From IMG/VR virus record IMGVR_UViG_2600254985_000007: DNA of 28,904 nucleotides; one strand, 5' to 3'. Position 1 is the stretch's first letter; every line of letters begins with the position of its first letter. This DNA is from a virus. Taxonomy: Duplodnaviria > Heunggongvirae > Uroviricota > Caudoviricetes. A program made the position numbers and the translations under genes. Positions 3,182 to 25,777 of this stretch are shown one piece after another. A model generated the notes under the pieces. It was not told the DNA's origin. It saw only the letters and a program-made list of their open reading frames with translations, and did not search any database.

Positions 3182-4754
3182 CTTGCTCCTCCTCGTTTGA
3201 TTTTTTCACTCCGGCCTCAAAAGCTGCAGCGGCCCATGCCGGTGGTTTCAGACCCGCAGCACGACGCTCCATGGTTTCCCGGACCTGCTGGGCAAAAATC
3301 TCCTGATAATCATCACCGCGTTTGGCGCACTCTTTTTCATACGTGCTGAGACCTGCCTCAATGAGCATGACGGCCTCCTGTACCTCTTTCAGCCCGTCAA
3401 TTGCCATTCGACCAGAGCCAATCCAGTTGGCATTCCCCCAGGCTGTTCTCGCCTCCTGGAAACTGAACCGGGCTTTCGAAGGAAGCGTGACCACGCGGCG
3501 GACAATCGCCTCTTCAAGCCAGCAAAGAAACATCTGACAGGCCTGTCGGGATGCCACAAACTTGCGACGCCCCATAAAGTACGCCCAGGACTCGTTAGCA
3601 CTTGCGCGTGCGGTCGAGTAGCTCATCTGCGAATAGTTTCGCGAAAGCTGCTCATACGACACACCAAGCCCAGCGGCAATATAACGCAGCAGGGACTGTT
3701 CAAAAGTCGAGTAGCCGTTATCGGTATCCTGCGCCGACTGAAGGTTGAGAGAATCACCCGGCAACAGGTGTGGAACCCTTGCCCCACCCAGGCGAACAGG
3801 CGCAGCTGAGTAATAGGACGCCATTTCACCGAGCCAGCCCGTAAGTTTGCTCTGCTGCTCTTTATTATCCGCGCCGAGAATAAAGTCCATCGCCGATTGG
3901 GTATCCAGTTCACTCTCGATGGTAGCGGCATACATAGCCTTCACTATCGCGCTCTGGAGCTGGGTATTTTGCAGGGTATCGAGCATTTTCATCTGCTCCA
4001 TCACGCTGTAAAACGCATTGGCCCCACGGGTCTGTCCATCCTCCATCGGTTCGAATACATGGATAAATGAAGGTCGACCGCCGGGTAGTTCGCGAGGAAT
4101 GTAGGTCCAGTTCTGCGCCATCCAGCCGGGATAACCATCGTCGCTGACGTAATATCCCAGCGCAGCACCGCTATCATTTATTTTCACACCGGCGCGACAG
4201 TTCCGGGTATCACCGATATTATTCGGATTGCTGACGCGCTTCGGACTGACCATTTTGAACTGAGTACGGAAAAGACGCGTTGAATCGCTGTCCCAGGTCG
4301 CCTGCGTGCATAATTCACCGTTAAACGCGTGCATGGCCACACCTTCTCGGATCATCATCGTAAACGTTCGCTTACGCTCGGCATCAATCCCGCAAAAGTC
4401 GTCCTCGGCATACTCGTTCCAGGCGGCTTCTACATCCCGCGAAAATGCGCGTGAATCCTCCTCATTGATGCCAAGATAGCGCCAGCTCGGTCGATAGCTG
4501 AGTCTGAAAAATGACCCGACGATGTGGTCCTGGTGGAGCTGCACGGCGTTTGCCGCATAGCCATTATTTCTGACCAGATCGTCAGCACGGGCATTTCCGC
4601 GCGAGAAGTTAGGCAGAAGAGCCGCATCAGCACTTTCGCTTGGTGGATTCCAGCCCCGCAACTGACCACCAAACCCTCCGCCGCCGCCATGATACCCCGC
4701 GTATTCCCGGAGGGATGTTTTCCCGTCAGGACCCACTAAAGATGGTATTTTCAT
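3162..4754 (-). CDS. B: portal protein, lambda gpB family
   Basis: 530 aa, N-terminus [38 protein letters not shown]... typical of lambda B; overlaps C start as in lambda. Confidence 0.93.
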
Positions 4755-4957
4755 ACGTAAAACCTTGCAGGCCCCTGGCGTCGTGATGTGGTACCAACCT
4801 GAGATTCAAGGTCAGCAATATACTTTTTGAGATCGGTGACTGAGGTAGCTGTAAATTCCACTCTTCGACCGTCTTTCTGTACCGTCGCCACGCGCTTTCC
4901 CATCATCAGGTCATGTAACGCAGCGCGCGCGGCATCCAGTTCAGTCTGTGTTGCCAT
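4751..4957 (-). CDS. W: head-tail joining protein, lambda gpW family
   Basis: 68 aa, [32 protein letters not shown]... matches lambda gpW; ATGA overlap with B. Confidence 0.92.
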
Positions 4958-6879
4958 TATTCCTCTCCAGACAATGCCCGCGCGTAATCCGCCAGGGTCT
5001 TGTTATTGTTACGGGTGCCTTCTTCCTCCAGCAGGCTGGCAAGAAGTGAATCAAGGTTAAGCTGCCAGCGGGATATGCTTATACGCAGCGCCGCCAGTGC
5101 ATAAACAAAGCAATCGAGCGCCTCATTTCGTCGTTTTTTGCTGTCCCAGACGATCTTTTTCTTTCCGTCTACCCATTTTTCCACCTGCTCTTCAGCTGTT
5201 AGTTGTTGGGCCTCTGTTAGATCGTAGATTTCTGGGTTATTCGGGAAATGAACCGCTCCCGCCAGCGGCTCGTCTCTTTGCGCCACCAGCGTGAAACGGT
5301 TATAAATCTGCTCTTTTGCGGTGTCTGTTCCTACCTCTGTGAGGTAAACACCATTCTTGTTACGCTTGCGTGGCATGTTCGCCACCGGCTTTCCATAAAC
5401 CGACGCCCCCTTTATAGGGATCACACGAAACAGACCGTGTTTTTTTGAGCGGTTGTAGACGATGGTGGGGTCAATACCGCCGATATCCCAGCAGATACGG
5501 GATACCGACATTTCCACGCCATTCTTTCGGAGATAGGTTTTGTTAATCGCCTCGTCCACCCTGACGAGGGTCGCTTCATCATCATGACGGCCCATAATGA
5601 TCTGCCGGTCAATCAGCCAGCTTTCCTCACCGGGCCCCCATCCCCAGACGCGCATTTCATATCGATCCAGTTGGGAGTCGATCCCGGCTGTCAGATAAGC
5701 AACACGCTCCGGTACGGATGCCCCGAAGAACTCTTTGCGTTCGGCCATGAGCTCCGCGTCAGGCCGTTCACCAATTTTAGGCTCCCATGTTTCGCCCAGA
5801 GTGGTGTTCACGAAGGTTTTACGCTTTCCTGTATCCCCTTTCGTTTTTAGCCAGTCTTTAACGATCTGAACCCAGGTGGTAAACGGGCTGTATGCCGTCC
5901 AGATGTGAAACGTCACGCTGTCTGGCGGGTCGATTTCGGTGCCTGTTGATGAAAACCAGGATAAACCGTCGCGCGTCCAGATCCCGGTGGTGTCGCAGAT
6001 GTAACGAGCTTCAGTGAAATCCAGCTCCTGCTGCTTAATGACGCAGGCATTATGTTCACACAGGTAAAAGACGCTGGAGGGTTCGCCCGGTGTCCATTTC
6101 AGCCCGAACGGGGTCTCTTTGTCGCCGAATTTAAGGTACTGCTCTTCACCACAGTGCGGACAGGCAACATGAAAACGCATGAAATGCCCGGACTCGCTGG
6201 CAGCACGCTCAATCTGGCAGGTCCCCTTTGTTTTTGGCGTTGAGCCGCGAATAGATTTGGGCCAGACAGACCCCTCAATACGTTTATCACCCAGGAACGT
6301 CGGGGATCCCTCTTTCTCAATATCTTCATCGAATGCCGCCAGTTCATCGTAACCGGCGACATCGACCGATTTCTCACGATAGTTTTTCGCCGCTTTACCA
6401 CCCAGACACCAGAACCCGCGACCGTTGGAGAAGCGTTTCATACTGAGCGTATTGTCCCGGTGCTTTTTTCCATACCAGGGGGCCAGCGCCAGAAGTGACG
6501 GAATATCGCGAATCGTCGGCTCAACATGCGACTTCATAAAGTTTTCGGCGTCACCATCAGTAGGCAGCCAGATAAGGGAATTTCGCTGCTTGTGCTGAAT
6601 AAAATACGCATAAACACCCAGCAACATTTTTGAATAGCCAACACGGGCAGACTTAACAACGTTGACCTCACGTATGTAATCGTTACCCATCGCATTCATG
6701 ATCGCGCGTTGAAACGGCAACGTTTCCCAGCGCCCTTCCTGGTAGGCCGACTCTTTGGGGAGATAGTAATTATCGTCTGCCCATTCAACCGCCGTTTGCG
6801 GCTCAGGTCGGTACAGCGAAAGTAGACCCGCGCGCGCAGAGTGCTGCAGCCCCTTAACCTGACTGTTCGATATATTCAC
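4957..6879 (-). CDS. A: terminase large subunit, lambda gpA family
   Basis: 640 aa with colinear resemblance to lambda gpA (N-terminal [19 protein letters not shown]...). Confidence 0.95.
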
Positions 6880-18367: not shown

Positions 18368-18425
18368 CATTATGGTGATGGAAAAAATCCACATGTTGTT
18401 TACCATGCATGGAGCGGAGGGTTTT

Positions 18426-19136
18426 ATGAGCAGCATTTCTGAAAGAATTAAATTTTTACTGGCAAGGGAAGGCTTGAAGCAGCGGGATTTGGCTGAGGCT
18501 TTGTCGACTAGCCCACAGACCGTCAACAACTGGATAAAAAGAGACGCGTTAAGTCGTGAGGCGGCGCAACAAATATCTGAAAAATTCGGTTATTCTCTTG
18601 ACTGGTTATTAAATGGAGAGGGTTCTCCAAAGAAGGATCTGGAGAGCAACATCCCGCCAGAGTCTGAGTGGGGAACTGTCGACGCTTGGGACAAAAATAC
18701 CCCCCTACCTGACGATGAGGTGGAAGTACCGTTTCTGAAGGATATCGAGTTTGCGTGTGGTGATGGACGAGTACACGATGAGGATCACAACGGTTTTAAA
18801 TTGCGCTTTTCAAAAGCAACGCTCCGTCGAGTTGGAGCCAATAGTGATGGTTCTGGTGTCCTGTGTTTTCCTGCATCAGGAGACAGTATGGAGCCAGTCA
18901 TTCCTGATGGTGCAACTGTAGCTGTTGATACTGGTAATAAGCGAGTTATTGACGGCGAACTCTACGCCATCAACCAGGGAGATCTGAAGCGCATCAAGCA
19001 ACTTTATCGCAAACCAGGCGGAAAAATTCTAATCAGAAGCATTAATCGTGATTATGACGACGAAGAGGCCGATGAGGCAGATGTCGAGATAATCGGTTTT
19101 GTGTTCTGGTACTCGGTATTGCGATATCGCCGATAA
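18426..19136 (+). CDS. cI: CI-like prophage repressor (HTH plus S24 LexA-like peptidase domain)
   Basis: HTH ...LKQRDLAEALSTSPQTVNNWIKRD... and C-terminal S24 signature ...PASGDSMEPVIPDGATVAVD...GELYAINQGDLKRIKQLYRKPGGKILIRSINRDY. Start at ATG 18426 with GGAGG SD; the track ORF begins upstream at 18372. Confidence 0.9.
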   Translation: MSSISERIKFLLAREGLKQRDLAEALSTSPQTVNNWIKRDALSREAAQQISEKFGYSLDWLLNGEGSPKKDLESNIPPESEWGTVDAWDKNTPLPDDEVEVPFLKDIEFACGDGRVHDEDHNGFKLRFSKATLRRVGANSDGSGVLCFPASGDSMEPVIPDGATVAVDTGNKRVIDGELYAINQGDLKRIKQLYRKPGGKILIRSINRDYDDEEADEADVEIIGFVFWYSVLRYRR

Positions 19137-19237: not shown

Positions 19238-19272
19238 TGAGACGTTTTGGTGAAAGCATATAAGGACTGTTG

Positions 19273-20139
19273 ATGGAAAACACTGGCTTACACGATGTTA
19301 ATTTTTCACTTAGATATGACGGTTTGGATGCTGAAAAGCATGAGATTGAACTTTCTTCGCTCGGTGAATCGCTAAAGGGATTTTCGAAGATATTAGCTAC
19401 AGCTGGAACCTTCGCATTAACCCAAAAGTACTCGCGAAGCACCTCAACTCAAGAGGTTAAAATTTACGCTACCGAAGCTAGGGCCAATTGTTTTTCTCTT
19501 GATACTATCATGAATTTTATCAGTCAGTCTCAATTGTTCTCAGGGTCTGCGGGGGCTATACTTGGCGCATTAGTGCCTTATATCTTCGCTAAAAACTCGC
19601 AGAAGAAAGAGGAAATGAAATACCTAAAAGAAGCACTTGAGAAGGCAATTGAGGCCCTCGGAAATAAAGATAAAGATACCATCTCAGGTCTAATCTCAGT
19701 GATTGACAAGATGGCTAGTGAGTTACGCCCATCAGTTAGACAGGCAGTTTCCCCCATCGGTACCACCTGTAATAAGATAAGCGTCACACCGGGGAATGGT
19801 TTCAAGCCTGCTGTAATTGATGAGCAAGATAAAGCAGTAATAGACCAGTTGGACGACGACGAAGTTCTTGGCTTAAGGGAGTATCGAATCTTCCTTACTG
19901 AATTCGACGCTCACCGAATGACCGCTAAAGTCATTATAGAAGGTGATGATTCAGATAAGCGCATCTCAGCACAAATAAGCGATCCATCTGCTTCAAAGGC
20001 AGACAACCCGTATCTCATTTCACTTAGTCGTTTTCTGTCAACGGGTCTAAGTCATGAGTCAGCGGTAAAAGTAACTGCCAAAGCAGCAGTTAGAAAAGGG
20101 GCTATTAGTAAACTTTTCATAGTTGATATTGAGCTTTAA
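19273..20139 (+). CDS. hypothetical protein (288 aa), AT-rich cargo gene in the rexAB position downstream of cI
   Basis: ORF with AAGGA SD 6 nt upstream of ATG 19273 (track start at 19270 is TTG); lower GC than flanking genes; followed by an intrinsic terminator; no recognisable family. Confidence 0.75.
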
Positions 20140-20433: not shown

Positions 20434-20520
20434 AAATCAACATAAAAATCAACAGTAAACGATTAAATCAACAAAATAAATCCACAAGGTGTTGACCTAC
20501 AAATCCACATGATGTTTAAT
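20434..20520 (+). promoter_or_regulatory. OL operator cluster (five direct AAATC(A/C)ACA repeats) with PL-like promoter TTGACC-N17-TTTAAT (20492-20520)
   Basis: Repeats at 20434, 20446, 20465, 20478, 20501 match those in the cI-cro intergenic region; near-consensus sigma70 promoter reading rightward into the early-left operon. Confidence 0.65.
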
Positions 20521-20936: not shown

Positions 20937-21233
20937 ATGATCGACGACATCAAGCGCATCGACTCAATGATAAATGCGCTTCGCAATATGAAACAGGACA
21001 TCAAGCGTCAGCAGAAACTAAGTGAAATAAACAGTTTAGACCTGTCGCCGAAGCAAGCTCAAAAGCGCAATGCCGATGCTGACTGGATTGCGATGGAACA
21101 GATTAAGCGTCGGCATGAGCTGCACGCTCTGTCTGTTGAGCTTGGGTTCGCTGAGCGCCGGGAAAGTTATGCTCCATTTGAATTAACTGACGGGTGGCAC
21201 CGATTCGACCACAAGCCGCGCGAACCTCAATAG
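20937..21233 (+). CDS. hypothetical protein (98 aa), first ORF of the early-left operon
   Basis: ORF with purine-rich SD; basic and charged; no clear Arg-rich N-like motif. Confidence 0.6.
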   Translation: MIDDIKRIDSMINALRNMKQDIKRQQKLSEINSLDLSPKQAQKRNADADWIAMEQIKRRHELHALSVELGFAERRESYAPFELTDGWHRFDHKPREPQ

Positions 21234-21255
21234 CCGCCTAACCAGCGGCTTTTTC
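21232..21255 (+). terminator. intrinsic terminator after the first early-left gene (tL-like)
   Basis: AGCCGC-CTAACCA-GCGGCT hairpin followed by TTTTT. Confidence 0.6.
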
Positions 21256-21388: not shown

Positions 21389-21598
21389 ATGAGTGATTTG
21401 GAGTTGGGCTTAAAGATATACGCATTATGGTTTGTCGGGACGTTTCTGCTCGACATAGCAATCAACTCGCTGACGAAAAAAGAACATCGCCAGCCACTTT
21501 CAAAACTAGCCATTGACCATGTACGCATGTCTTCCGCAATAACCATTGTGGGCCTGATTGTGTGCGGTATGGGCTGGTTCTTATTCAAGGTGGTGTGA
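21389..21598 (+). CDS. small predicted membrane protein (69 aa, two hydrophobic helices)
   Basis: Two hydrophobic segments (IYALWFVGTFLLDIAI and AITIVGLIVCGMGWFLF); sits where kil/sieB-type genes lie in lambda. Confidence 0.6.
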   Translation: MSDLELGLKIYALWFVGTFLLDIAINSLTKKEHRQPLSKLAIDHVRMSSAITIVGLIVCGMGWFLFKVV

Positions 21599-21599
21599 G

Positions 21600-21758
21600 A
21601 TGACAGTCACCCACAACGGCAAGCAGTACACCGCCAAAAAGCTCAACGATAACGAGTGGCAGCTGACGTCGGTATCTAACCCGCGTGAAAAGCTGACGAT
21701 GAACCGCTGGCATATGAAGCTGGCTGGCCTCCTGGAACAGGTTGAGGTGAAGGCATGA
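21600..21758 (+). CDS. hypothetical small protein (52 aa)
   Basis: Start at ATG 21600 with AAGGTGG SD (the track ORF begins upstream at 21558); MTVTHNGKQYTAKKLNDNEWQLTSV... Confidence 0.5.
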   Translation: MTVTHNGKQYTAKKLNDNEWQLTSVSNPREKLTMNRWHMKLAGLLEQVEVKA

Positions 21759-21964
21759 TCAACCACTACGGCACCACCCCGCTCATTCGCCAGTGCGTCA
21801 CGCCCGGCATGATGGCATTGCATGAAGGCCGCACATATCGCGTCTCAGCAGTCATTCAGGAGCGCAAATGGGTCTACCTGCACACCGACGCAGAAATCAT
21901 CCGCCTCAGTGACTGCGTGATTGACGTCCTTCTGGACGGTCACGGCAACCCTCTCACCCATTAA
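21755..21964 (+). CDS. hypothetical small protein (69 aa)
   Basis: ATGA-coupled to the preceding ORF; no family recognised. Confidence 0.5.
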   Translation: MINHYGTTPLIRQCVTPGMMALHEGRTYRVSAVIQERKWVYLHTDAEIIRLSDCVIDVLLDGHGNPLTH

Positions 21965-21974
21965 GGACTTTGTC

Positions 21975-22811
21975 ATGGAAACTAAATTTCTTTCTGACGG
22001 CCGTAAGGTCGTTGTCGTTGGTGCGTTGAATAATCAGGAAACGATCGTCCAGGAAGTGTTTGTCACGCAGCAGGGTGATGAAATCCCTGGTGGCGAGCGT
22101 TTTGTGGTGAAGAGTCTACATGACCAGCCAGTTGAATCATGGTTGTCTCGTGAAAAAGCAAAACAAGAAAAAGCCCTTGCTGATGCGAAGTTGAAAATTG
22201 AAAAGATCAACTCGGAAATTAGCAACCTACAGAATACATTAAGTTTCTGGAGAGAAATGGTTAAGCAGGTAAAAGCGTTCTCAGATCATATCAATGATGC
22301 TGACCTGGACCATTTCGCAGATGTAATGACCGGGCAGGTTAAATTTGCCATTCGTCGTGATTACGGTGTGCCGTCCATTGAAAGATATGAAGATTTTATG
22401 TCTTCAATTGACAACTACTATGGGCGTAAGAAATTTGAAGGTATCAAGTGCTTATCTCTTTTGGGCAGCACTAATGGAGATATAGCTTTACGAGTAAATT
22501 GCTATTCAGATGGCAGTGGTGGAAGCGATACGGTTGAGTTCTACAAGACTATTGAAGAAGCCAGGCAGTGTGTTAAGCGCATTGCCCTGGAAAAACTCAA
22601 TGGTAACGGCCTGAGCATTGATGATGTCAAAAAGTGCCGCAATATGGGCATTGTTTTCAGCAGGGATGAGTTACAAAAAATCAAAGAACGCCTATTCTCT
22701 GCATCGGAAAAGAATCTCGCCCACTACCAAGAGAACTTCGATAAGCAAGTTGCTCAGATAAATGACGGCAAGCTGGCTATAGAGAAAATGCTTAACGAAG
22801 CAATCAACTAG
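21975..22811 (+). CDS. hypothetical protein (278 aa), AT-rich cargo gene in the early-left operon
   Basis: Start at ATG 21975 with AAGGA SD (track ORF begins at 21921); low GC; predicted coiled-coil centre; no family recognised. Confidence 0.7.
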   Translation: METKFLSDGRKVVVVGALNNQETIVQEVFVTQQGDEIPGGERFVVKSLHDQPVESWLSREKAKQEKALADAKLKIEKINSEISNLQNTLSFWREMVKQVKAFSDHINDADLDHFADVMTGQVKFAIRRDYGVPSIERYEDFMSSIDNYYGRKKFEGIKCLSLLGSTNGDIALRVNCYSDGSGGSDTVEFYKTIEEARQCVKRIALEKLNGNGLSIDDVKKCRNMGIVFSRDELQKIKERLFSASEKNLAHYQENFDKQVAQINDGKLAIEKMLNEAIN

Positions 22812-22915
22812 CCATATACGCATTTTCAGATCCATAGGCAAATAACCCTTAACCAATTCAACTGCTGCCTGTCACCAGAGGGCGAGATCTGCACATCAAA
22901 ATTTCAGGAGAAACC

Positions 22916-23884
22916 ATGAGCGAAGTAACGGACTTAACTGTCATCGAAATCAAGCCGGAACAGGCCCCAGTGCTTTACGTAGCGGGCGGCCTTGATGCTT
23001 ATCTCGAGCAAATCCGCCAGGCAGTAAACGAAGTGCCGGACCTGTCCACGAAGAAAGGACGTGACCGTGTCGCCTCTCTGGCAGCGCAGGTATCACGCAG
23101 TAAGACGGCAATTGAAAAGCCGGGCCGAGAGTACCTGAAGCGCCTGAAAGAGGCTGTGCGACCTGCTGAGGCCGAAATTAAGCGTTTCGTTGATGCATGT
23201 GACGAGCTTCGCGACGCAACCCGCCGCCCACTCACCGAATGGGAAGCCGAGCAGGAACGCATTAAGGCTGAAGAAGCCATGAACGCGCTGCACGCCGAAG
23301 CGCTGGAAATGAACATCAAGTTCGATCAGGAGTTGGCGGCCAAGTTCGAAGCAGACCACGAAATGGCTCTGCTGATGAACAAGGATTTCGACCGTGACCG
23401 CGAAGAGCAGCGCCGCCTGGCGGAACAGGCTCGGCGTGAGCACGAAGAGCGCATTAAGCGCGAAGCAGCAGAACAAGCCCGCCGAGATGCCGAAGCGAAG
23501 CACAAAGCGGAGATTGAAGCCGCAGCGCGCCGTGAAGCTGAAGAGAAAGCACGTGCAGAGCTGGCTGAACGCCAGCGCATTGAAGCGGAACAGCGTGCGG
23601 AACGCGAGAAGAAGGAAACCGAAGAGCGTGCGCGCCGCGAAAAAGAAGAAGCCGTTGCCGCCGAGCGCCGCCGCCAGGAAGAGGCAGAAGCCGCCCGTTT
23701 GGTCGAAGAGCAGCGCAAAGCTGAAGAAGAAGCGCGCCGAGCCGCAGACAAAGAGCACCGCCGCACCGTCAATCGTCGTGTCTACGCAGATCTGATTGCT
23801 CAGGGCATCCCAGAAGAATACGCACAGAAAGCAGTGCTGGCGATCGCTGGCGGCAAAGTGCAGGACGCGCACATCAAATATTGA
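22916..23884 (+). CDS. hypothetical phage protein with Glu/Arg/Ala-rich low-complexity coiled-coil core (322 aa)
   Basis: SD AGGAG upstream; globular N- and C-termini around an EAR-rich repeat region; immediately upstream of the recombination module. Confidence 0.7.
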   Translation: MSEVTDLTVIEIKPEQAPVLYVAGGLDAYLEQIRQAVNEVPDLSTKKGRDRVASLAAQVSRSKTAIEKPGREYLKRLKEAVRPAEAEIKRFVDACDELRDATRRPLTEWEAEQERIKAEEAMNALHAEALEMNIKFDQELAAKFEADHEMALLMNKDFDRDREEQRRLAEQARREHEERIKREAAEQARRDAEAKHKAEIEAAARREAEEKARAELAERQRIEAEQRAEREKKETEERARREKEEAVAAERRRQEEAEAARLVEEQRKAEEEARRAADKEHRRTVNRRVYADLIAQGIPEEYAQKAVLAIAGGKVQDAHIKY

Positions 23885-23891
23885 GGCAAAC

Positions 23892-24173
23892 ATGAACGCA
23901 TACCTCACTTACGACCGCATCGAAGAACGGCGCTGGGTTGAGCAGCAACTCACCGACGAGAAAGAGAAGTGGATCGACGACCGGGCGAAAGAACTGATCG
24001 CCATGTTCCCGAAATATGCTCTGCAAATGAGTAGCCTGTTTCTCCCAAAAGAAGCGCAAATGGCACTAGTCGGTGAAAAGGCAGAGGAAGCCTATAACGA
24101 CTATGTCACACGCATCTGTTACGACCGCGCCGAAGAAGAGTGGGATCGCCTTCATCCAATCTGCCCATTTTAA
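23892..24173 (+). CDS. hypothetical protein (93 aa)
   Basis: Start at ATG 23892 with GAGG SD after the stop of the preceding gene; MNAYLTYDRIEERRWVEQQL... Confidence 0.55.
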   Translation: MNAYLTYDRIEERRWVEQQLTDEKEKWIDDRAKELIAMFPKYALQMSSLFLPKEAQMALVGEKAEEAYNDYVTRICYDRAEEEWDRLHPICPF

Positions 24174-24182
24174 GGAGGGACT

Positions 24183-25100
24183 ATGAGCTTAACCCTTGTT
24201 GATTTCGTCAAACAACAGGAGCCGCTTTTCATTAAGGCGGCCACTGACGAGCGGATGGTGTGGGCGAAGGAAAGTCAGTTCGCCATCCAGCTATTTCAGA
24301 ACAACGACTACCTCGCGAAAGTTGCATTCCAGAACCAGACCAGCACACAGAACGCGATCATCAACGTTGCGGCTATCGGTATTTCGCTAAACCCAGCTCA
24401 GAAGCTGGCTTACCTGGTTCCGCGTAAAGGGGCTATTTGCCTCGACATCAGTTACATGGGCCTGATGCACATCGCGCAGCAGTCTGGCGCCATTAAGTGG
24501 TGCCAGTCGGCTATTGTTCGAAGAAACGACCAGTTCCGCCGCGAGGGGCTCGATAAGCCGCCGATCCACATCTACAACGACTTTGATACTGAAGAGCAGC
24601 GCGGGGACATTGTAGGGGCGTATGTAACGGTAAAAACTGACGATGGTGATTACCTTACCCATACGATGCGCATCGATGCCATCTACTCCATCCGTGACCG
24701 GTCTGAAGCATGGAAGAAGTACAAATCTGACAACAGCAAGAAGTGTCCATGGGTCACCGATGAAGAGCAGATGATCCTAAAGACGGTCGTGAAGCAGGCA
24801 GCAAAATACTGGCCTCGACGTGAGCGCCTGGATGCCGCCATCGACCATGTTAATACCGAGGGTGAGGAAGGTATCAACTTCTCAGCAGAACGCCAGCCAG
24901 AACGCGATGTAACCCCAGCAGGAGACGAAATTATCAAGGAGATTAACGACGTCCTTATCGCAATGGATAAGACATGGGAAGAAAACCTGCTCCCAGTCTG
25001 TTCGCAAATTTTCCGTCGTGATATTCGCGATTCATCCGAGCTTACCCAAGCCGAGGCAGTTAAGGCCTTAGGCTTCCTCAAGAAGAAGGCGGCAGCATGA
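24183..25100 (+). CDS. recT: RecT-family single-strand annealing protein
   Basis: AAGGAGG SD; conserved RecT-like blocks (...[15 protein letters not shown]..., ...[24 protein letters not shown]...). Confidence 0.85.
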
Positions 25101-25777
25101 CACCAGAAATTATCCTGGCCCGGACCGGCATAGATGTGTCCACCGTAGAGCAAGGTGATGAAGCATGGGCCAAATTAAGGCTCGGAGTTATTACTGCCTC
25201 TGACGCTCACAACGTCATTTCCAAGCCTCGATCTGGCAGCAAATGGACAGACATGAAAATGTCCTACTTCCACACCTTGCTCGCCGAGGTATGCACCGGT
25301 GTAGCGCCAGAGGTTAACGCCAAGGCGCTGGCCTGGGGCAAGCAGTACGAAGAAGACGCCCGCACCCTCTTCGAGTTCACCACTGACGTGAAAGTCACGG
25401 AGTCTCCGATCTTGTTCCGTGACGAGAGCATGCGCACCGCCTGCTCCCCTGACGGCCTGTGCAGTAACGGGTTCGGCCTTGAGCTTAAATGCCCTTTCAC
25501 CTCCCGCGACTTCATGAAATTCCGCCTTGGCGGTTTCGAAGCCATCAAGTCTGCGTACATGGCCCAGGTGCAGTACAGCATGTGGGTGACCGGAAAAGAC
25601 GCATGGTTCTTTGCAAACTACGACCCGCGCATGAAACGCGAAGGCATTCACCACGTCGTCGTTGAGCGGGATCCTCAGTACATGTCCGATTTCAACGAAA
25701 TGGTGCCGGAGTTCATCGAGAAGATGGACGAGGCGCTGGCAGAGATCGGCTTCACGTTCGGGGAACAGTGGAAATGA
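25097..25777 (+). CDS. exo: lambda-type 5'-3' exonuclease (Exo/YqaJ family)
   Basis: 226 aa, near colinear with lambda Exo ([35 protein letters not shown]...[33 protein letters not shown]...). Confidence 0.95.

Follow-up and report, generated by a model that had tools for sequence, protein, structure and literature searches.

The closest described systems are found in the early-left region of phage lambda, where Ral, CIII, Kil, Gam, Ea10 and SieB are encoded by dispensable genes that form mosaic cassettes, stand first after N and depend on pL and N for their expression. Gene 41 of phage phi80 appears to be alike in all of these respects; however, its product of 278 aa is several times the size of Ral, CIII and Kil and about twice that of Gam, and its place in the operon differs. 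In lambda, ral, sieB, ea10 and cIII all lie upstream of kil and the interval between kil and gam holds no gene, whereas in phi80 gene 41 is found downstream of kil, in that very interval. A sequence-only reading of this DNA had put the gene where lambda carries ral, sieB, cIII and kil; the early-left assignment held, while the exact spot has to be moved past kil, before gam.

Members of the Ea22 family share an early-left N-domain, coiled coil, C-domain build, and gene 41 likewise encodes an early-left lambdoid protein in which globular ends are combined with a central coiled coil. Nevertheless, lambda Ea22 has 182 aa and is encoded between xis and exo, the gene-41 protein has 278 aa and is encoded between kil and gam, and the hhalign probability for the pair is 0.2% (0.3% for lambda Ea10). 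Pfam scans of the gene-41 family detected none of Lambda_CIII, Ral, SieB, Lambda_Kil and Gam; the neighbouring kil and gamL are recognised by PHROGs. As judged from these comparisons, gene 41 resembles the accessory early-operon genes of lambdoid phages in kind and stands outside their families.

Gene 41 in the early-left operon of phi80

The window, that is, the whole stretch of 28,904 nucleotides that was analysed, corresponds to phage phi80 (Lula), and the open reading frame at 21975-22811 on the + strand is its gene 41 (PHI80_41). In a blast comparison the DNA was 100% identical to PHI80_41 in the GenBank phi80 record JX871397, of which the window is the reverse orientation, and tblastn with the encoded protein also matched phage phi80 at 100% identity. 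With megablast, the gene was found in 64 complete E. coli genomes at no less than 99% identity, and the cloning strains DH5alpha, DH10B, NEB 5-alpha, NEB 10-beta and XL10-Gold carry it at 100% identity in the phi80dlacZdeltaM15 prophage. The gene is thus already annotated, as a 'hypothetical protein' by the depositors and as a 'zf-TFIIB domain-containing protein' by RefSeq/PGAP, and its family is catalogued as PHROG 16901; searches by accession, PHROG number and peptide strings in the literature outside the phi80 genome paper (J Bacteriol 2012) retrieved no report on either.

A mechanical reading frame on the + strand spans 21921-22811 and opens with a TTG inside kil. The ATG at 21975 gives a product of 278 aa, and the corresponding methionine is the first residue of every homologue in a 38-sequence alignment; therefore, 21975 is the real start, and the 278-aa gene of the earlier reading is upheld. 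This ATG is preceded by a Shine-Dalgarno-like AAGGA and separated from the kil stop codon by a gap of 10 nt.

Gene 41 is placed in the pL (early-left) operon, with kil on one side and agt and gamL on the other (Table 1). A consensus scan of the + strand revealed no promoter or terminator beside the gene, an Rfam scan of the region matched no family, and the direct repeats found there were chance or low-complexity matches. Position and scan together indicate that gene 41 is transcribed within the N-dependent pL operon, and the presence of pL, N, tL1 and kil upstream agrees with the early-left placement.

Table 1. Features of the phi80 early-left region and of gene 41, in window coordinates.
Feature	Position	Strand	Basis or remark
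cI	18372-19136		JX871397
Gene 40A	19270-20139		JX871397; rex position, adjoins cI
pL	about 20492-20520		JX871397
N	20937-21233		JX871397
Terminator tL1A	21232-21254		JX871397; listed as after N
Terminator tL1B	21428-21465		JX871397; after N
Antisense ORF pair 44/43	about 21558-21823		JX871397
kil	21755-21964		JX871397
Gene-41 cassette, in phi80, absent from Enterobacter phage CobraSix	21956-22851	+	blastn; flanks about 92% identical
Shine-Dalgarno-like AAGGA	21963-21967	+	7 nt upstream of ATG; read from sequence
Gene 41 CDS, PHI80_41, AFV29177.1, 278 aa + stop	21975-22811	+	100% identical to JX871397
N-terminal beta module, aa 1-55, four predicted strands, most conserved part	21975-22139	+	alignment; AlphaFold2 pLDDT 55-66
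Long helix, aa 56-105, predicted coiled-coil stalk	22140-22289	+	AlphaFold2 helix; heptad periodicity
Central alpha/beta domain, aa 106-229 (predicted)	22290-22661	+
Gly-rich hairpin loop YSDGSGGSDT, aa 177-186	22503-22532	+	between model strands 170-175 and 184-190
C-terminal amphipathic helix, aa 230-278, least conserved	22662-22808	+	AlphaFold2 helix 230-277, pLDDT 91-96
Intergenic linker upstream of agt	22852-22910	+	79% identical to CobraSix kil-gamL spacer
agt ('anti-toxin for Gam')	22916-23884		JX871397
gamL	23889-24173		JX871397
recT	24183-25100		JX871397
exo	25097-25777		JX871397

The composition of gene 41 sets it apart from its surroundings. Its GC content is 42.5% against a window mean of 51.7%, its GC3 is 0.45 while the neighbouring kil, agt, recT and exo have values of 0.73, 0.59, 0.62 and 0.71, respectively, and just 1.7% of 837-bp segments are more AT-rich; the gene had indeed been singled out earlier as AT-rich relative to recT and exo.

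Enterobacter phage CobraSix offers a natural comparison, since its Kil protein and the phi80 one share 93% identity and the DNA of its gamL-recT-exo block is 92% identical. In this phage, kil is followed by a 70-bp spacer and then by gamL, with neither gene 41 nor agt between them, and in blastn the homology to phi80 resumes at 23869. As the linker that precedes agt in phi80 matches the CobraSix spacer, gene 41 and agt count as two distinct insertions when CobraSix is taken as reference, and the linker itself marks a module boundary. Since a near-identical phage exists that lacks gene 41, the gene is dispensable. In a further locus (L042), a kil gene with 99% identity adjoins a gene-41 allele with only 52% identity, so that a mosaic joint coincides exactly with the gene boundary. 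The absence from CobraSix, this joint and the atypical base composition together show that gene 41 is a mobile accessory gene. Presence or absence between near-identical phages combined with atypical composition makes it moron-like in the broad sense; the promoter and terminator of its own that define a classical moron were not detected in the consensus scan of the + strand.

Conservation and predicted architecture of the gene-41 protein

The PHROG 16901 HMM (phrog_16901, 'unknown function') matched the protein over its full length (E 4.9e-141), aa 1-274 aligning to profile positions 2-275 of 275. A word-indexed search returned 220 relatives, all of them unnamed or 'hypothetical', and an exhaustive profile search over 1.84 billion cluster representatives (clusters at 50% identity) gave 1598 clusters at E<=1e-3, 421 of which reached E<=1e-30. 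Among the best 150 of these 1598 clusters, nearly all proteins were 255-291 aa long, with four shorter ones of 196-224 aa, and in all but six the match covered more than 250 of the 276 positions of the profile. The family includes pdc_045 of Pantoea phage PdC23 (72% identical to gene 41), AHZ95056 of Pseudomonas phage phiPSA1 (42%) and proteins of Yersinia, Proteus and Xenorhabdus prophages; full-length homology, the four-part architecture and an early-operon place in temperate phages are common to its members. In genome scans the hosts were Enterobacterales, Pseudomonas, Halomonadaceae and the alphaproteobacterium Robiginitomaculum, as well as the Bacteroidota Chryseobacterium, Kaistella and Lentimicrobiaceae.

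Conservation is concentrated at the N terminus. In the Bacteroidota and Robiginitomaculum copies, identity to phi80 is 57-72% over the first 60 residues and 25-29% over the whole protein. The 38-sequence alignment contains 20 invariant columns, and 19 of these fall within aa 4-53 (K4, L6, G9, K11, V12, N19, E22, I24, V25, F29, G34, G40, E41, F43, K46, L48, D50, P52 and V53); G120 is the single invariant column beyond this segment, and G164, D179, S181, G182 and A196 are at least 90% conserved. To describe selection, codon alignments of 78 distinct alleles from the fetched loci were analysed. Between close pairs, dN/dS was 0.05 in the N module, 0.10 in both the first helix and the central domain, and 0.145 in the last helix, and gene 41 is a genuine protein-coding gene under purifying selection. 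Between distant pairs synonymous sites are saturated (pS about 0.82), and the N module is still 70% identical, against 16-26% for the helices and 33% for the central domain. Because this identity persists despite the saturation, the conservation acts at the protein level and is not the trace of recent recombination.

The N module was not found in any other architecture, either with an N-only profile or among 30 metagenome loci retrieved through N-module peptide patterns, in all 30 of which the central domain was also encoded or the copy was visibly broken. Short proteins matched by the N-only profile proved to be fragments: of two cases checked on long contigs, one was a frameshifted and the other a stop-interrupted copy, and we reject 'N-only' proteins as a separate architecture, these being frameshifted or truncated copies. 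A 91-aa neighbour in a Proteus prophage showed a weak tblastn likeness to the N module that a hhalign probability of 0.4% rules out.

AlphaFold2 with the 38-sequence alignment produced a model with a mean pLDDT of 78.9, in which four short strands in aa 1-45 are followed by a helix (56-105), an alpha/beta domain (108-225) and a second helix (230-277). The low pLDDT of the N module (55-66) probably arises because its near-invariance leaves no covariation signal; possibly, the module also folds only within an oligomer. For helix 56-105, the family-averaged hydrophobicity has a power of 43 at period 3.5, compared with 0.6-2.7 at periods 2, 3, 4 and 5, and the only other strong peak, with a power of 25 and a period of 2.3, corresponds to the 7/3 harmonic that a heptad repeat should produce. 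With a 3.5-residue periodicity and a predicted helix, this segment has what is generally asked of a coiled coil. The C-terminal helix peaks at 3.6 residues. The two helices that flank the central domain are of near-equal length (50 and 48 residues), and we infer that the second packs antiparallel to the first. The earlier suggestion of a coiled-coil centre is therefore to be revised, the coiled coil being assigned to aa 56-105 and the centre, aa 106-229, to a globular alpha/beta domain; the Gly-rich loop YSDGSGGSDT, in turn, was correctly recognised and contains D179, S181 and G182, the best conserved, nearly invariant residues of the central domain. D179 and S181 are its only conserved polar residues.

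When the central domain was remodelled separately (aa 104-232, 113-sequence alignment), pLDDT was 91.4 with a pTM of 0.81. No structural relative was found among solved structures or viral predicted structures (BFVD), where the best Foldseek hit was an uncharacterised Vibrio phage protein with an E-value of 0.018, and the domain is a candidate new fold. In overall plan, a long helix, a beta-rich insert and a second long helix of similar length, the protein recalls prefoldin; however, the prefoldin insert is a beta hairpin and that of gene 41 a 124-aa alpha/beta domain. Weak Prefoldin_2 matches occurred in 4 of 38 family members (best E 2.5e-4, below threshold), and we put them down to coiled-coil composition rather than kinship. 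The protein has no transmembrane segment and is predicted to be soluble. Its pI of 5.75 and net charge of -4 make DNA mimicry unlikely; the N module has a pI of 4.6.

Genomic setting of the relatives

The context of gene 41 was surveyed in 69 viral and 19 genomic loci plus several additional contigs, and throughout this survey the gene has the same orientation as an early operon of a temperate phage. Where the phage is lambdoid, the gene is found downstream of the repressor and one to three genes past an N-type antiterminator, and in three loci (L033, L045 and L047) it follows N immediately. Downstream modules vary and include RecT/Exo, Erf, Sak4-like AAA_24, SSB, RdgC and Dam, MT-A70 or C5 methylases. 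No conserved immediate neighbour emerged from the 69 viral and 19 genomic loci, even when neighbours were clustered with phmmer. The commonest downstream neighbour is agt; nevertheless, 154 phage records contain agt and 10 contain gene 41, and three loci (L007, L011 and L014) have gene 41 but no agt, so that an obligatory functional link between the two was rejected. On plasmids we found just three copies, all decayed and all in Klebsiella phage-plasmids, where they adjoin recA, gp32 and a 5'-3' exonuclease; the family was not found on conjugative plasmids.

Possible functions of gene 41

Sequence searches of Pfam, NCBIfam, PADLOC and PDB with the gene-41 protein gave no match above coiled-coil noise, which bears out the earlier impression that no motif could be recognised by eye; homology to a characterised housekeeping protein, the finding that would have spoken against that reading, was searched for as well and none was detected. 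The sole PADLOC-DB match (PDLC01142, E 0.0028, 15.9 bits) covers aa 53-124 and is of coiled-coil character, and no anti-phage defence component was matched in that database beyond such noise. The globular domain showed no fold similarity to solved anti-defence or host-takeover structures (for example Ocr, ArdA, Gad1, Tad1/2, Acb, Acr and Gam), and no catalytic family was matched by HMM or fold. Profiles of the N module or the central domain alone, run against a 5.8-billion-protein set, Pfam, PHROGs and PDB, returned fragments of the family itself, besides hits due to chance, [FeFe]-hydrogenase and the LgBiT tag among them. Weak hits to Prefoldin_2, FliD_N, MKT1_C, SpiroCoCo, HMG-CoA synthase ('GSG') and SadA ('DGSGG') were discarded as reflecting coiled-coil or Gly-loop composition.

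Considering that: (i) gene 41 is a dispensable, horizontally mobile cassette, (ii) it holds a Ral-like slot, the earliest after N, (iii) it is independent of any fixed phage partner, being found in RecT/Exo, Erf, Sak4-like, SSB, RdgC and methylase contexts alike, and (iv) its N module is conserved across bacterial phyla; we tentatively favour the hypothesis that its product, an oligomer without enzymatic activity, binds a component of the host that is universally conserved and so serves counter-defence or host takeover. The preservation of the N-module sequence across phyla implies a partner that is invariant across bacteria, and two helices of similar length flanking a globular insert suggest a stalk with functional ends that oligomerises through its coiled coil. 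The two near-equal helices would pair into this stalk and hold the N module and the alpha/beta head at opposite ends. The N module would grip a partner common to Proteobacteria and Bacteroidota, perhaps a core protein of host DNA or RNA metabolism or a universal ligand, and the more variable head and stalk would block, bridge or sequester it. During lytic growth the phage would gain early protection or control of the host, much as it does from Ral, Gam and Kil, rather than a core phage function. The host-modulating role suggested by the sequence-only reading fits the mobile cassette, the early slot, the lack of a fixed partner and the conserved N module, all of them indirect indications. Several observations weigh against a host-directed binder. 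No likeness to known anti-defence or host-takeover proteins was found by sequence or, for the globular domain, by fold, the family is missing from conjugative plasmids, although many anti-defence genes are carried there too, and selection is purifying rather than diversifying in all domains.

The constant setting within DNA-metabolism clusters fits equally well an accessory of recombination or replication that would engage DNA intermediates of the phage or work with SSB, RecA or another universal hub of DNA metabolism. Gene 41 adjoins the gam-recT-exo block in phi80, lies upstream of Erf in PdC23, comes directly after SSB and RdgC in Litchfieldella and beside recA, gp32 and the 5'-3' exonuclease in the Klebsiella phage-plasmids, and elsewhere is near RecT, SSB and Sak4-like genes; a DNA structure or the SSB tail, both universal, would explain a cross-phylum N module. 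We nevertheless regard this role as unlikely, because the presence of gene 41 is independent of the recombinase type and its neighbours are not conserved, because CobraSix keeps gam-recT-exo without it, because the acidic N module and whole protein are not typical of a DNA binder, and because no similarity to known mediators or annealases is seen. A different argument can be built on the conserved residues themselves. Within 55 aa, the N module holds an unusually dense set of conserved charged and His residues (K4, D8, K11, E22, E27, E41, K46, H49 and D50), and K4, K11, E22, E41, K46, D50 and H49 could mark a catalytic or metal site as well as a binding surface. If such residues, possibly together with the conserved DGSGG loop, formed a catalytic or metal/nucleotide site, a universal substrate, either a small molecule or a nucleic acid, would account for the conservation across phyla. 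That gene 41 encodes an enzyme seems to us quite improbable all the same, given that no catalytic family was matched, that 55 aa in four strands offer little room for an active site, that the restriction of conserved polar residues in the head to D179 and S181 argues against an enzyme there, and that a coiled-coil build is more usual for a binder or scaffold.

Roles in the lysogen have still less to recommend them. Resistance to T4 and interference with P1 have been reported for phi80 lysogens (PMC2885432), and an accessory, AT-rich, moron-like cassette in the region of lambda sieB could in principle supply a superinfection-exclusion or abortive-infection protein that guards the lysogen. However, with pL, N and the tL1 terminators ahead of it and no promoter detected for itself, gene 41 should stay unexpressed in a lysogen; the PADLOC match is limited to coiled-coil noise, a transmembrane segment is lacking, and gene 40A, which adjoins cI in the rex position, is a better candidate for such phenotypes. 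The exclusion variant considered in the earlier reading is accordingly less likely, and we give it very little chance. Slimmer still is the chance that gene 41 modulates the lysis-lysogeny decision in place of a missing cIII, for instance by inhibiting FtsH or Lon through amphipathic helices: cIII is not annotated in phi80, gene 41 adjoins kil as cIII does in lambda, and the protein has long amphipathic helices, but Pfam scans found no Lambda_CIII similarity, CIII is smaller than the protein by a factor of five, the family extends to Bacteroidota and Pseudomonas phages with unrelated regulatory circuits, and CobraSix manages without it. As for the TFIIB-type zinc-ribbon protein that the RefSeq/PGAP name implies, it is almost certainly not what gene 41 encodes. 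In favour of this reading are the RefSeq name and its copy in the annotation of Pantoea phage PdC23. Against it, PF13453 is absent at E<=0.1 for the phi80 protein and at E<=1 in 38 family members, the four cysteines of the phi80 protein are scattered and form no CxxC pair, and in the 38-sequence alignment the Cys columns are neither invariant nor nearly so; judged by sequence, the 'zf-TFIIB domain-containing' label is unsupported and can be regarded as refuted.

What goes beyond the ordinary in gene 41 is the cross-phylum invariance of its 55-aa N module, together with a confidently predicted central domain that has no structural match. Carried to its full extent, the host-directed binder that we favour would represent a new class of phage early effector, in which an oligomeric stalk and an unseen alpha/beta fold are joined to a 55-aa module that targets one invariant bacterial component, neutralising a widespread defence or seizing a core host machine; this stronger version strikes us as rather doubtful. 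If the proposed role is true, gene 41 would give a handle on a target that is bound in the opening minutes of the lytic cycle by temperate phages whose hosts are widely different bacteria, and the N module would be a ready-made probe for it; should gene 41 prove to lack a phenotype, it would simply add to the conserved phage ORFs. Work on the gene is straightforward, since phi80 is genetically tractable and common cloning strains carry it. Its RefSeq name, 'zf-TFIIB domain-containing protein', calls for correction; the label has already been copied to Pantoea phage PdC23 and to several Enterobacter entries.

Gene 40A as a candidate for prophage-expressed defence

As a candidate for a defence function expressed from the prophage, gene 40A of phi80 is better placed than gene 41, the 278-aa gene between kil and agt (21975-22811 of the window). 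This preference is based on its position, which is that of rexAB in lambda, on its Pfam matches to DUF7946 (E 3.8e-62) and DUF7947 (E 1.2e-20), on a weak match to the PADLOC candidate PDC-S42 (E 1.1e-5), and on the T4 resistance and P1 impairment reported for phi80 lysogens (PMC2885432). Gene 40A is also AT-rich, with a GC content of 42%.

Features discussed, by source sequence
Feature	Sequence	Coordinates	Strand	Remarks
Gene 40A	phi80 window	19270-20139	+	between cI and pL
PHI80_44	phi80 window	21558-21823	+	hypothetical protein (GenBank)
PHI80_43	phi80 window	21558-21823	-	hypothetical protein (GenBank)
Short spacer	phi80 window	22852-22910		upstream of agt
agt	phi80 window	22916-23884		annotated antitoxin
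Low-complexity stretch	phi80 window	23250-23750		E/A/R-rich, within agt
Spacer remnant	phi80 window	23850-23890		upstream of gamL
kil-gamL junction without agt	CobraSix (L095)	4710-4781		
Spacer	CobraSix (L095)	4713-4773		upstream of gamL
Decayed gene 41 copy	Klebsiella pneumoniae (L072)	5001-5600		111-kb phage-plasmid-like contig

Product name and decayed copies of gene 41

In RefSeq NC_021190 and in WP_ entries, gene 41 is named a 'zf-TFIIB domain-containing protein' (RefSeq/PGAP). This name is unsupported, since PF13453 was matched by none of the 38 family members (the aligned homologues, PHROG 16901) and a CxxC pair was not found in the gene 41 protein. The same name has spread to other phage annotations, such as pdc_045 of Pantoea phage PdC23.

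A decayed copy of the gene is carried by SSU5-like Klebsiella phage-plasmids (CP110757, CP056499 and CP037443); its frame runs for 57 codons before a stop, the similarity continues to about residue 134, and genes for gp32, a 5'-3' exonuclease and RecA lie just upstream.

The agt region and its boundaries

According to the annotation, GamL is toxic without agt. In the phi80-like Enterobacter phage CobraSix, the gamL-recT-exo block (92% DNA identity to phi80) directly follows kil and agt is absent; either Gam is tolerated alone in this phage, or its dependence on agt is conditional. Genes resembling agt were found in 154 phage records; their product is frequently misannotated there as 'TolA protein'. 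Within phi80 agt, the low-complexity stretch has a GC content of about 60%, an AT skew of up to +0.55 and numerous imperfect direct repeats, and long spurious ORFs overlap it on both strands.

The spacer that precedes agt in phi80 ends in ...ATCTGCACATCAAA..CAGGAG and recurs in CobraSix, and a remnant of it, GCACATCAAA, persists in phi80. This spacer resembles a boundary sequence for cassette exchange.

PHI80_44 and PHI80_43 are antisense to each other and overlap completely, and it is likely that at most one of them is a real gene; the PHI80_44 ORF is kept in some related phages.
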